A stretch of DNA of 64,000 nucleotides from an uncultured Pseudomonadales bacterium (GCA_964457085.1 CAYWDM010000004.1:8131-72130); one strand, 5' to 3'; positions 11,159-40,262 are shown, counted from the stretch's first letter. Notes: generated from the sequence alone by a model not told the origin. Translations and numbers: made by a program.

Positions 11159-12586
11159 TTATTTTGAGTTGCCTTGAGCTTTTGGTCTAATCGCAATACC
11201 TAGTTCCTGCAATTGCTCTTCTGGTACTAGGCTAGGTGCATCCATCACCGCCGTGCGACCGGTTGAGCTCATTGGGAACGCAATGGTTTCTTTGATAGAT
11301 TGCTCACCAGTTAATACCATGATTAGGCGATCTAAACCGAGTGCGATACCGCCATGTGGAGGAGTGCCTACTTCAAAAGCTCTGAGCATATGACCCACAC
11401 CCTGCTCAATTTCCTCATCGCTGTAGCCCATGGTTTTGAAAGTAGCTTTTAAGACCTCTGGCCGATGAGCACGAATGCTACCGCCTCCAACTTCATATCC
11501 ATTACAGACTAAGTCGTATTGGTTGGTAATAATATTTTCAACGTTTTTTCCAGCCAAGTGGTCTTCGACATGCTCAGGAATGGGACTACTAAATGGATTG
11601 TGAGTGAATGTCCAACCGCTTTTACCGTCTCTCACCTCAGCCACGTCTTTTTGATCAACTTTTTTGAAAAAAGGAAAATTGGAGACCCAGGCGAAAGCTA
11701 AAACTCCAGCTTGTTTCTCTTCTTCGCTACGCAGATCAAATTTATCAGCACCATATTTGGCCATCGAGTCTTTATAGTCAATAACGGGGAAAACTTCATC
11801 TTTTAACTTACCACCGACTGCTTTCACAGCTGATTTGACAACAGTCTCGACAGTTTGCATCACTTGTTTTTGATCAACAAAACTCATTTCTAAATCAAGT
11901 TGAGTGAGTTCAAATAAACGATCTGCACGTAAATCTTCATCACGCACACAGCGGGCAACTTGAAAATATCGCTCAAATCCAGCAGTCATTAATAATTGTT
12001 TATATTGTTGTGGACTTTGTGGCAATGCATAAAATTTACCAGGCTGGAAACGAGAGGGAACTAAAAAGTCTCGAGCACCTTCTTTGGTTGATTTGGTGAG
12101 TAGTGGAGTTTCGATCTCAACAAAATCCTGTGCATATAAACCCTCACGAATGGCACGGATAAACTTACTTCGCATCCGTAAAATTCGCTGCATTCGCTCA
12201 CGGCGAAGATCAAGATAGCGATATTTTAAACGCACTTCTTCATTGACTTCACGACCATCACCCTCAACCAAAATCGGCAATTCGCCAGCTTTATTTAAAA
12301 TTTCGTATGATTGGACATCAATCTCGATGGCACCAGTTTCTAATTCTTTGTTCACCAGTTTTTCTGGTCGAGCCTTAACTAAACCGGTAATCTCCAACAC
12401 ACTTTCGGTAGTGGCGTCGGCTAGTTTCAAATAACCAACACACTGTACCAATCCAGTCCAATCACGTAGATCAATAAAAGTGATTTTGCCGTGATCACGC
12501 TTGGTATTAACCCAACCCATCAACGTTACAGTCTGGCCGACCAATGTGGCGGTGTCTTTAATGAGTGTGCGGGTGGTACCTTGCAT
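11159..12586 (-). CDS. aspS: aspartyl-tRNA synthetase (class IIb, short form without GAD insertion)
   Basis: OB-fold N-terminus (GQTVTLMGWV), QSPQQYKQLLMTAGFERYFQVARCVRDEDLRADR motif 2 region and GGGSIR motif 3; only 475 aa, so the GAD insertion domain is absent. Confidence 0.85.
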   Translation of the reverse strand: MQGTTRTLIKDTATLVGQTVTLMGWVNTKRDHGKITFIDLRDWTGLVQCVGYLKLADATTESVLEITGLVKARPEKLVNKELETGAIEIDVQSYEILNKAGELPILVEGDGREVNEEVRLKYRYLDLRRERMQRILRMRSKFIRAIREGLYAQDFVEIETPLLTKSTKEGARDFLVPSRFQPGKFYALPQSPQQYKQLLMTAGFERYFQVARCVRDEDLRADRLFELTQLDLEMSFVDQKQVMQTVETVVKSAVKAVGGKLKDEVFPVIDYKDSMAKYGADKFDLRSEEEKQAGVLAFAWVSNFPFFKKVDQKDVAEVRDGKSGWTFTHNPFSSPIPEHVEDHLAGKNVENIITNQYDLVCNGYEVGGGSIRAHRPEVLKATFKTMGYSDEEIEQGVGHMLRAFEVGTPPHGGIALGLDRLIMVLTGEQSIKETIAFPMSSTGRTAVMDAPSLVPEEQLQELGIAIRPKAQGNSK

Positions 12587-37698: not shown

Positions 37699-39522
37699 TC
37701 ATCTGACCGTAACTGATTTTGCAAGATTACGTGGTTTGTCTGAGTCAATACCTTTTAGTATTGAAACTTCATACGCTAATAACTGTCCAAACACTGCAGA
37801 TAGAATTACATTTCCTACGCCAAAATCTGGATGATTAAAGTATTGGCTCGGCCATGTATTTGTATCTGTTACTAGGCCAACACTATTGCCTTGGCGTGCG
37901 GATATTTCCATCGCATTTGTTAAATCAAGTGCAAAAGTCTGTTGATTTGTAGCCAAACACAAACACTCTGTTCCATTTTCTACTAATGCCAAAACACCAT
38001 GTTTCAACTCTCCAGCAGAAAAACCCTCCGCATGTACATATGCTGCCTCTTTTAGCTTCAATGCTGTTTCCAGTGCAATTGGATACAGAGTCTCTCTACC
38101 CAATACAAAAAAATGATCCTTTTTTGAAATACGTAGACACCAGGCTTTGAATTCCACAGACTTCGGTAACTCAACTACTAGTTTTTGAATATATTTTGCC
38201 GTCGCCGTTAGGTGACCGTTTGTAGCAGCGGCACTTTTTTTATTTGCCATTTTGCCTGCTAGTAGTTGCAGACAACACAGTTGTGCCACAAAACTCTTGC
38301 TAGCGACTACAGCTTGTTCAACTCCTGCCATGATTGAAACTGAGATTTTAGCAAACTCCGACAAACTAGAGTTAGGTTTATTTACCAAACAATAATAACT
38401 AATACCGTTGTTTTTAAGCCACTCTGTATGTATCAAAATATCTGCTGTTTCACCACTTTGAGAAATAAAAATCACACTCCCCTCAGCTGGTATGTGATTT
38501 CTCCATGTCAAAAACTCGTTAGCTGAAAAAGCATATGTTTGACGACCGTTAGCAGTCATAACTTGAGCACCATACAACGCAGCATGGTATGCAGAGCCAC
38601 AACCAACGAGATAAACAACAGGGCCAAGTGATCTTGCAAGTTTCTCCAGATTGTTTTTTGTATTGGAACCATACGCGTGTATTAAAGCAAGCAATACAGC
38701 CGACGAATCAGCAATTTCTTTTTGAAAAAAATGTGAATATGTGCCAATATCCGTATCTGTTTTCACTAAACTCAGTGTGTGCCATTCAAGATCAATAGGT
38801 GTTAAATCAGTGACGTTATATGTCAGCTGGGTTTTTTTTGTAAAAAATAGCAGCGTATTCTCAGGAATAGTCGCATATTTTTTAACTTTACCAATTAATG
38901 CCATCAGATCACTGACTACAAATTTTTGTTGTGCTGACTGTGCAAAAAGTAACGGTGAACCGTGACGAACAGCTAGGCAACTTTTGGACTCTGCATCAAT
39001 GATTACCACCGCGTTGCTGCCAGATAATTTCAGAAAAACGGTCTGGAGTGTTTCAATCAAAAGTTGATCAGTGTTGACTGGTAATCTCAGCTTAGATTGA
39101 TTGACTACATTTTTCCTAAACTCCAACTCAAATAATCCTAAAATAACTTCTGTATCTGTCTGTGACTTAAACAGATATTTTTTATCAAGAAGTTGCTTTT
39201 TAAGCTCAAGAAAATTCTCGACTACACCGTTGTGAACTAAGGCAAATCTGCCATCACTTGATATATGAGGATGAGCATTTTCGGCAGTTACACCGCCATG
39301 TGTTGCCCAACGAGTGTGTCCCAACGCAATTGAGCTGGTGGTGTTCTTGTCGAGTTTTGCAGCACCAATTTTACCAACCTGTTTTTTAACCTGACATTTT
39401 TCCTCGCTAGCCCAAGCCACACCCCAACTGTCGTATCCCCGGTATTCCATTTCTTTGAGTGCTGTTAATGCTTGAGTTGGAGCATTAATATTTTCTTCGA
39501 TTAATCCGATGACACCGCACAT
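37699..39522 (-). CDS. glmS: glutamine--fructose-6-phosphate aminotransferase (isomerising)
   Basis: MCGVIG N-terminal nucleophile Cys, GATase-2 domain, two SIS domains, C-terminal ...VTVR. Confidence 0.9.
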   Translation of the reverse strand: MCGVIGLIEENINAPTQALTALKEMEYRGYDSWGVAWASEEKCQVKKQVGKIGAAKLDKNTTSSIALGHTRWATHGGVTAENAHPHISSDGRFALVHNGVVENFLELKKQLLDKKYLFKSQTDTEVILGLFELEFRKNVVNQSKLRLPVNTDQLLIETLQTVFLKLSGSNAVVIIDAESKSCLAVRHGSPLLFAQSAQQKFVVSDLMALIGKVKKYATIPENTLLFFTKKTQLTYNVTDLTPIDLEWHTLSLVKTDTDIGTYSHFFQKEIADSSAVLLALIHAYGSNTKNNLEKLARSLGPVVYLVGCGSAYHAALYGAQVMTANGRQTYAFSANEFLTWRNHIPAEGSVIFISQSGETADILIHTEWLKNNGISYYCLVNKPNSSLSEFAKISVSIMAGVEQAVVASKSFVAQLCCLQLLAGKMANKKSAAATNGHLTATAKYIQKLVVELPKSVEFKAWCLRISKKDHFFVLGRETLYPIALETALKLKEAAYVHAEGFSAGELKHGVLALVENGTECLCLATNQQTFALDLTNAMEISARQGNSVGLVTDTNTWPSQYFNHPDFGVGNVILSAVFGQLLAYEVSILKGIDSDKPRNLAKSVTVR

Positions 39523-39589
39523 ACTGATCCTTTCAGATACTACAATCTACCCCCTCAAAGGTAGGAGGTAAAAAAATAAATAAGAAAAG

Positions 39590-39782
39590 ATGAAAATGCT
39601 GCGAGTCAAATAATAATTGCTTTAGACTCAACCTCACGGTTGGATTTAACAATTACTTCACGATGTTGATCACACCGACAGGTTTCCGCAGATACTCTTT
39701 GCTTGGCAAAGGTCCGATTTCCTAATGTCTTCATTAGGACCTGTTCCTCGTTTTCCAGTTTTCACTGGATCACACGCTCTAA
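39590..39782 (-). ncRNA. candidate glmS ribozyme/riboswitch in the glmS 5' leader
   Basis: Minus-strand leader reads AGAGCG..CCAGUGAAAACUGG-AAAACGAGGA-ACAGGUCC-UAAUGAAGACAUUAGG-AAAUCGGACCU.... The consensus glmS ribozyme is A^GCGCCAGAACUGGC...GACGAGGA-UGGAGG-UUAUCGAAUUUUCGG-CGGAUGCCUCC. The GACGAGG-type core, a P1-like CCAG..CUGG hairpin and a P2/P2.1-like arrangement are all present but divergent. Placement is by eye only, with no covariance search. Confidence 0.3.
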
Positions 39783-39877
39783 CTGTTATTTCGCAGTAAG
39801 CACATCTCTGTGAGAGATTGTACTGTAATTGTTATCGCCAAACAAATGGTCCTTAAAATCACTTGAATTTCCTTATG

Positions 39878-39902
39878 TTTCTACTACAATATGTAGTAGA
39901 AA
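39878..39902 (+). promoter_or_regulatory. BlaI/MecI/CopY-type operator (TACA/TGTA dyad) overlapping the start of the repressor gene
   Basis: Perfect inverted repeat TTTCTACTACA-ATA-TGTAGTAGAAA ending 3 nt before the ATG at 39906. It matches the known TACTACA-N-TGTAGTA / TACAnnTGTA operator class of this repressor family. Confidence 0.55.
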
Positions 39903-39905
39903 CTT

Positions 39906-40262
39906 ATGAAAGAAATTAGTGACCTAGAACTGAGAGCAATGCAGGTGCTTTGGCATCATCAAACCTGCTGCGTGCACATGGTCCACGAAGCACTCTCCGT
40001 AACCAGACCTACTGCCTATACAACAGCTCAAACAATACTGGAACGACTTCATAAAAAAGACTATGTAATAAAACAACATATGGGTAAAAAATCCATATAT
40101 CAACCAAAAATATCCAAGCAACTCTACGCTACTTTTTTAATCAAAAAACTGTTCAGCCAACTGGCAACTGACTTTGATGATGTGTTATTCAAGTCGTTGG
40201 CAAAAGGACTGGAGGCTTTCACCCCTACACAAAAACAAAAGCTAGCTAAATTAATTAAATAA
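39906..40262 (+). CDS. BlaI/MecI/CopY-family winged-helix transcriptional repressor
   Basis: LELRAMQVLW...TAYTTAQTILERLHKKDYV N-terminal wHTH typical of Penicillinase_R proteins; 118 aa. Confidence 0.75.
   Translation: MKEISDLELRAMQVLWHHQTCCVHMVHEALSVTRPTAYTTAQTILERLHKKDYVIKQHMGKKSIYQPKISKQLYATFLIKKLFSQLATDFDDVLFKSLAKGLEAFTPTQKQKLAKLIK

Follow-up and report, generated by a model that had tools for sequence, protein, structure and literature searches.

The leader of the glmS gene in the window, by which we mean the whole 64-kb stretch of DNA analysed here, contains an RNA (39602-39789, minus strand) that is very probably a genuine glmS ribozyme (RF00234), acting in the glmS 5' UTR by self-cleavage with GlcN6P as cofactor. 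In a focused Rfam scan of 39400-40000 with relaxed filters, RF00234 was matched at these positions with 43.9 bits and E = 5.6e-9, the E-value referring to the 601 nt scanned, and the alignment covers all model positions from 1 to 167. The score lies only 7 bits over the gathering score of 37, and a default Rfam scan of the whole 64-kb window at gathering thresholds returned 0 matches because the speed filters discarded an above-threshold match; taken as a refutation of a ribozyme, that blank is overturned by the focused scan. A divergent ribozyme of this kind was what the preliminary description had suspected in the glmS leader, and the RF00234 search of the minus strand, with a full-length match above the gathering score and the core residues in place, confirms the suspicion. 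The element is a new addition to a well-known class, and the Rfam model recognizes it.

The ribozyme ends 79 nt upstream of the start codon (ATG 39522) of the gene that it is predicted to regulate, an ORF of 607 aa on the same strand (37699-39522, minus strand) with a Shine-Dalgarno sequence, AAAGGA, at 39533-39528 (minus strand). The Pfam domains of this ORF (SIS, GATase_6, and GATase_7) identify it as GlmS, and the intergenic leader, which lies between it and the gene of a BlaI-type repressor (39906-40262, plus strand), measures 383 nt (39523-39905), in agreement with the earlier estimate of about 380 nt. The minimum free energy (MFE) fold of 39598-39782 has -54.3 kcal/mol (z = -3.88; none of 200 shuffled sequences folds as well), and thermodynamic folding by itself recovers P1, P2, P3, and P4 together with two extra hairpins, H1 and H2.

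The core is numbered, and its essential residues are listed, after PMC7125110. All parts of the ribozyme are given here on the minus strand. The predicted cleavage site, aligned to the A/GCG of RF00234, lies between A(-1) at 39778 and G1 at 39777 (39777-39778). It opens the 5' segment G1 C2 G3 U4 G5 U6 G7 (39777-39771), of which C2 G3 U4 G5 U6 G7 (39771-39776) form the 5' strand of P2.2; this strand pairs with 39691-39687 through C2-G, G3-C, U4-G, G5-U, and G7-C, leaving U6 bulged instead of the usual A. P1 is the hairpin UCCAGU-GAAA-ACUGGA (39754-39769), present in both the RF00234 alignment and the MFE fold. The active-site strand AACGAGG (39746-39752), aligned to the consensus GACGAGG, supplies A27 and C28 and includes the 5' strand of P2.1 (C39750 G39749 A39748); its G39746 we take to be the counterpart of the general-base guanine (Tte G40, Ban G33). 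P2 is formed by ACAGG (39740-39744) and CCUGU (39678-39682), as indicated by the RF00234 alignment, the MFE fold, and covariation in the family.

Within the P2 loop, H1 (UCCUAAUG-AAGA-CAUUAGGA, 8 bp, 39720-39739) stands between P2 and the 3' strand of P2.1. It is followed by AUCGGAC (39712-39718), whose U39717 C39716 G39715 form that strand and are complementary to CGA at 39750-39748, by H2 (CUUUGC-CAA-GCAAAG, 6 bp, 39697-39711) between the 3' strands of P2.1 and P2.2, and by AGUAU between H2 and CUGCG. RF00234, whose model has 10 nt at this place, handles the region of H1 and H2 as a 46-nt insertion. The P2.2 3' strand CUGCG (39691-39687), G57 (39686), and AAA (39685-39683) together occupy 39683-39691, opposite the consensus gCGGaUG. 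Beyond P2, the P3 hairpin CGGUGU-GAUCA-ACAUCG (39661-39677) and the P4/P4a domain with its GUGA tetraloop (39612-39657) appear in both the RF00234 alignment, with few non-canonical pairs, and the MFE fold. By inspection, UUGA(C)UC in the 3' tail (39602-39611) is complementary to GAUCAA of the P3 loop and could form P3.1 with it; this pseudoknot is weak in the window (UCAA/UUGA plus GA/UC, 4 + 2 bp, with one bulged C).

The sequence elements listed in the preliminary description are all found on the minus strand: AGCG at 39778-39775, the hairpin that is P1 at 39769-39754, AAAACGAGGA at 39754-39745, ACAGGUCC at 39744-39737, GGACCU at 39715-39710, and, enclosed by the latter two, AAAUCGG and the small hairpin at 39739-39720. 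The helix layout built from them holds only in part. The elements exist, but ACAGGUCC and GGACCU do not form P2, which is ACAGG/CCUGU, and AAAUCGG, which had been mistaken for the CGGAUGCC element, contributes its UCG as the 3' strand of P2.1; the counterpart of CGGAUGCC lies further downstream, in GCGGAAACC at 39689-39681. As a conserved helix, the ACAGGUCC/GGACCU stem (AGGUCC/GGACCU) was rejected, although it is complementary in the window; in 67 distinct relatives, 73.6% of its cells are paired, against 73.8% for shuffles, 360 of 500 of which pair at least as well. Within this stem, UCC belongs to H1 and GGAC to the conserved AUCGGAC. The ribozyme is also a little longer than had been stated: its span, 39602-39789, takes in the P3/P4 peripheral domain and the 3' tail and so continues for about 90 nt on the 3' side of the core described earlier.

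Cleavage is abolished by single mutations at G1, C2, G3, A27, C28, G56, and G57, and residues 43-45 form part of the cofactor pocket (PMC7125110). The window RNA has all seven of these essential residues, the ACGAGG strand, and an A at position -1 (A39778). It departs from the Rfam consensus at C4 C5 A6, which are replaced by U G U, at G26, which is A, and at U59 G60, both of which are A. Single changes at C5 or G53 cost the 66-nt Bacillus-type core about 1000-fold, and A6 is at least 97% conserved (PMC7125110). Given this cost and the changed conserved positions of the core, activity cannot simply be assumed. Migration of the bulge in P2.2, however, rescues activity in deep-mutational data on the Bacillus-type core (PMC7125110).

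The same RNA recurs upstream of related glmS genes. At the two closest GlmS loci, RF00234 gives 41.2 bits (L028) and 54.0 bits (L029); L028 is syntenic with the window (repressor, leader, glmS, GDSL lipase, and ECF sigma in the same order), and the three RNAs share GCGUGUG, AACGAGG, GCGGAAACC, and a P2-loop insertion of 39-51 nt. A search of metagenome contigs with the pattern ACGAGG-N10-40-ATCGGAC-N5-35-TCNGCGGAAACC found 105 stretches; with the window, L028, and L029 included, the 108 pattern matches comprise 93 distinct sequences. Of the 105 metagenome stretches, about 95 are followed at a distance of 90-320 nt by ATGTGYGG, the start of GlmS, and 47 distinct full-length GlmS ORFs were recovered from the metagenome loci. 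R1, our covariance model of the core, rests on six sequences checked by hand, one of them the window. Besides the window, L028, and L029, it matches 103 of the 105 pattern loci, and 98 of these 103 further loci were outside its seed alignment and so give independent support; the 106.5 bits that it gives the window are expected by construction, the window being a seed member. The other two pattern matches, L055 and L120, are GC-rich and were rejected as false positives. R1 found no match in 26 glmS loci from other phyla, and the GlmS relatives returned by a scan of GTDB genomes are distant only (at most 36% identity, other phyla), none of them with this RNA.

The marks of this two-hairpin form are H1, H2, and GCGG(A/G)AACC in place of GCGGAUGCC, all of which the window has; its letters differ from the standard ones by GAAA for GAUG, usually GCGUGUG for GCGCCAG, and A, U, or G for G26. 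As a check on ascertainment, four additional GlmS relatives were chosen by protein similarity alone (L144-L147), and the two-hairpin form is present in 4/4 of them. RF00234 gives L145-L147 41.5-49.2 bits, and L144 only 29.6 bits, below the gathering score, with 42.5 bits from R1. These relatives show slight departures from the search pattern (AUCGAAC, AUCGGGC, and GCGGGAACC), so that the 103 subtype examples are a lower bound. In total, the two-hairpin RNA occurs in 7/7 of the closest GlmS relatives sampled. With default settings, Rfam recognizes 13 of 20 subtype loci tested, at 40-66 bits, and misses seven (L040, L046, L058, L063, L065, L072, and L082). In L144 (573-763), the cleavage-site GCGNNNG is replaced by GUUG, possibly through inactivation of this copy or an error in the assembly.

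Covariation across the family supports the fold. In an alignment of 67 distinct rows fitted to R1, in which the search pattern had predetermined P2.1 and most of P2.2, standard pairs occupy 95.9% of cells vs. 68.1% in shuffles (0/500 shuffles reach the observed value), and the covariation score is 0.685 vs. 0.178 for shuffles and at most 0.12 for slid partners. Changes on both sides occur in 7/7 pairs of P1 (94.6% of cells paired), 8/8 of H1 (95.5%), 6/6 of H2 (95.9%), and 3/5 of P2 (99.7%). The P2.2 helix is 91.9% paired. P2.1 is 100% paired in the 67 sequences, where it is invariant since the search pattern demanded it, and it is retained in L144-L147; AUCGGAC, likewise invariant in the pattern-selected set, shows small deviations in independently sampled relatives. 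H1 and H2 are each a single hairpin in 86/87 distinct sequences, with medians of 8 bp and 7 bp. Their loops have no conserved sequence in these 87, which suggests that the two hairpins are structural struts rather than specific receptors.

The remaining contacts were followed in the distinct sequences as well. In 81/81 sequences, position 53 has a possible partner at position 5 or 6: where position 53 is A, position 6 is U (22/22), and where it is U, position 5 is G or A (59/59), so one of positions 5 and 6 always pairs and the other bulges. Among the same number of distinct sequences, position -1 carries A 65 times and G 16 times, and position 26 is U in 50, G in 20, and A in 11. For the P3.1 pseudoknot, the best duplex that the P3 loop of a sequence makes with the 16-nt tail of the same sequence averages 4.85 vs. 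3.41 +/- 0.11 with permuted tails (maximum 3.79 in 200 permutations); this structure-parsed permuted-tail test was used instead of a simpler one, which gave 32% vs. 36% in shuffles. A perfect 5-bp P3.1 is present in L028 and L029.

We put forward only tentatively, as a possibility rather than an expectation, that the two-hairpin glmS ribozymes of the Microgenomates group form a distinct, hitherto undescribed structural subclass. In the full texts searched, no paper connected glmS ribozymes with the CPR, the Patescibacteria, or the Microgenomates, a 2011 survey of glmS variants being outside this comparison. Such a subclass would be defined by helices grafted into J2/2.1 and J2.1/2.2, a rewired P2.2, a relaxed position-26 triple, and GAAA, and it would imply that the most conserved part of the glmS ribozyme tolerates large insertions. 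It would also be common, with at least 103 metagenomic examples and all seven sampled GlmS relatives, and its folding or kinetics might differ in a way that suits amino-sugar scavengers.

A separate observation concerns the inserted hairpins of some relatives. P1 and an inserted hairpin are nearly identical in L031, L037, L060, and L127 (also L034 and L053); the stretch shared by P1 and H1 is 18 nt in L127 and 15 nt in L031. The window RNA does not show this likeness. Sharing of at least 9 nt between P1 and H1 was seen in five sequences vs. 0.7 expected from permuted pairs. This likeness suggests duplication or homogenization of hairpins inside one RNA.

Host markers point to a member of the Patescibacteria, Microgenomates group. 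The nearest named relatives of the AspRS encoded in the window (11159-12586), at 73-76% identity, come from Candidatus Pacebacteria, Woesebacteria, and 'Patescibacteria group' MAGs, which bears out the earlier impression of a reduced-genome lineage. The GlmS proteins encoded downstream of subtype RNAs include one from Candidatus Roizmanbacteria (L031) and one that clusters with Candidatus Blackburnbacteria (L102), both of which are Microgenomates-group CPR lineages, and the two-hairpin form is common in, and typical of, tiny-genome Patescibacteria of this group. AspRS relatives overall reach 90-91% identity, whereas the window GlmS, compared with 5.8 billion proteins, has a nearest non-self match of only 49% identity, followed by one of 39%; genomes near this one thus seem to be without this glmS, which looks patchily distributed or fast-evolving in the lineage. 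Neither Rfam nor R1 found a glmS ribozyme in L136-L142 (Gottesmanbacteria, Peribacteria, Gracilibacteria, and 'Patescibacteria group'), and therefore the two-hairpin RNA is not universal in CPR. The glmS leaders at L136 1303-1500 (Gottesmanbacteria, 198 nt) and L139 1275-1500 (Peribacteria, 226 nt), with no RF00234 or R1 match, could hold a different regulatory element.

By analogy with the canonical system, the window RNA would fold into the usual double-pseudoknot core (P1, P2, P2.1, and P2.2), buttressed by P3, P3.1, and P4. GlcN6P, the product of GlmS, would bind a preformed pocket consisting of G1, the C2-G pair, G57, and the UCG strand of P2.1, and would serve there as catalytic cofactor. 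Self-cleavage between A39778 and G39777 is predicted to leave a 5'-OH on the glmS message, and degradation of this message would lower GlmS synthesis when GlcN6P is plentiful. The analysis itself establishes the family membership of the RNA, its architecture and covariation, its genomic link with glmS, and the lineage, whereas it is from the canonical ribozymes that we infer the dependence on GlcN6P, the exact chemistry of cleavage, and the decay of the 5'-OH product. In Bacillus, RNase J removes this product; none of the 33 ORFs in the 64-kb window that are 250 aa or longer encodes RNase J.

The divergence of the core raises the question of whether the RNA is still a working ribozyme. It could be a decayed relic, homologous but catalytically dead and retained only as a structured leader: the core departs from the consensus at positions 4-6, 26, and 59-60, the score clears the gathering score by so little, and L144, having lost its cleavage-site GCG and scoring 29.6 bits, shows that decay does occur in the group. 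What decay does not account for is that more than 100 independent sequences have these same deviations and yet keep all essential residues, with compensatory changes in every helix, a combination that indicates purifying selection on the fold. The changes in P2.2 moreover keep its pairing through wobbles and a migrating bulge, and a rearrangement of this kind is active in the published data (PMC7125110). We therefore consider a dead relic very improbable. An active glmS ribozyme also remains far the better reading than a chance resemblance in which the leader would be an unrelated structured or unstructured UTR. The blank gathering scan of the whole window could be cited for such a resemblance, but the E-value of the focused scan, the homologous RNAs in syntenic and non-syntenic glmS leaders, and the strong covariation speak against it; the Rfam match, the homologous leaders, and the covariation already refute this explanation, and its probability is close to nil.

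A functional glmS fold might nevertheless behave differently from the standard ribozyme, responding to another amino-sugar, differing markedly in kinetics or Mg2+ dependence, or using its hairpins to bind a protein or to form an alternative fold. Several features would fit such a change: two helices are inserted into the junctions flanking the cofactor-binding strand, GAAA replaces GAUG beside G57, the base-triple position 26 is variable, and the 5' side of H1 has in many cases an alternative partner in AUCGGAC. Yet the pocket residues G1, C2-G56, G57, and the P2.1 UCG are unchanged, nearly all examples lie upstream of glmS as feedback by GlcN6P predicts, the absence of a conserved hairpin-loop sequence argues against a specific protein or tertiary receptor, and the alternative stem of H1 with AUCGGAC shows no covariation. 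Altered behaviour accordingly seems to us a slim prospect, much like the relic, and a GlcN6P-dependent, self-cleaving glmS ribozyme remains the preferred reading.

The leader and its flanks show other features. A scan of the leader for consensus signals detected neither a promoter on the minus strand nor a terminator. A possible glmS promoter is visible by eye at 39817-39845 (minus strand), about 35 nt upstream of the cleavage site; it consists of TTGTTT, a 17-nt spacer, and TACAAT, is below the threshold of the consensus scan, and has a -35 hexamer with 3/6 matches. A perfect palindrome, TTTCTACTACA-ATA-TGTAGTAGAAA (39878-39902, plus strand), stops 3 nt short of the ATG of the divergently oriented repressor ORF (39906-40262, plus strand; Penicillinase_R/BlaI family) and overlaps a promoter-like TTGAAT-16-TACAAT at 39863-39890. 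A similar palindrome, TACTACA-AAT-TGTAGTA, adjoins the orthologous repressor gene in L028 (4604-4625). The palindrome in the window probably serves the repressor itself as operator, the transcript being nearly leaderless, and as this site is about 100 nt upstream of the ribozyme, transcription of glmS might also be affected. Between the ribozyme and the Shine-Dalgarno sequence, about 25 nt upstream of the ATG, there is a 7-bp hairpin, UACCUCC-UACCUUUGA-GGGGGUA (39548-39570, minus strand), in which an anti-SD-like CCUCC pairs with an SD-like GAGGGGG; this hairpin is not conserved in L028.

The findings place a predicted metabolite-sensing ribozyme over the first committed step of cell-wall amino-sugar synthesis in uncultivated, reduced-genome Patescibacteria, in which, to our knowledge, RNA regulation has barely been studied. 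Because default Rfam misses the window and seven of the 20 relatives tested, glmS ribozymes are probably under-annotated in CPR/Patescibacteria genomes, and a subtype-specific covariance model mends this under-calling. The subtype also amounts to a natural experiment, in which both linkers flanking the cofactor-binding strand prove replaceable by helices and the A6 bulge can change its identity or move, in agreement with the deep-mutational data on the Bacillus-type core. The understanding of how the glmS ribozyme class works is unchanged by these results.

Compared with canonical RF00234 ribozymes (Bacillus subtilis/anthracis and Thermoanaerobacter tengcongensis), the window RNA has in common its position in the glmS 5' UTR, the A/GCG site, the ACGAGG strand, P2.1 (CGA/UCG), P2.2, G56, G57, P1, P2, P3, and P4/P4a with a GNRA loop, together with a putative P3.1. 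It differs in its short P1 (6 bp with a GAAA loop) and in position 26, which is A in the window and mostly U in the subtype but G in the canonical form. Where the subtype has H1 and H2, standard ribozymes have about 4 nt and about 6 nt, respectively, and the P2.2 of the subtype contains U-G and G-U wobbles and a bulge that is U or migrates, in contrast to the canonical A6 bulge. A standard ribozyme of the same RNA family is illustrated by L143, from a Thermomicrobiales (Chloroflexota) MAG whose GlmS, 37% identical to that of the window, is among its nearer relatives: the core of the L143 ribozyme is canonical (AGCGCC, GACGAGG, and AUCGA-ACAC-UCGGCGGAUG) with no inserted hairpins, and it scores 71.1 bits with Rfam and 18.9 bits with R1. 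In Enterobacteria, a comparable task falls to the GlmY/GlmZ-RapZ system, in which trans-acting sRNAs and a protein adaptor activate glmS translation when GlcN6P is low. No components resembling this system were seen in the 64-kb window. The logic of the two is the same, namely feedback by GlcN6P on GlmS synthesis at the level of the mRNA, but the enterobacterial system has no cis ribozyme and is unrelated in sequence and structure to the element described here.
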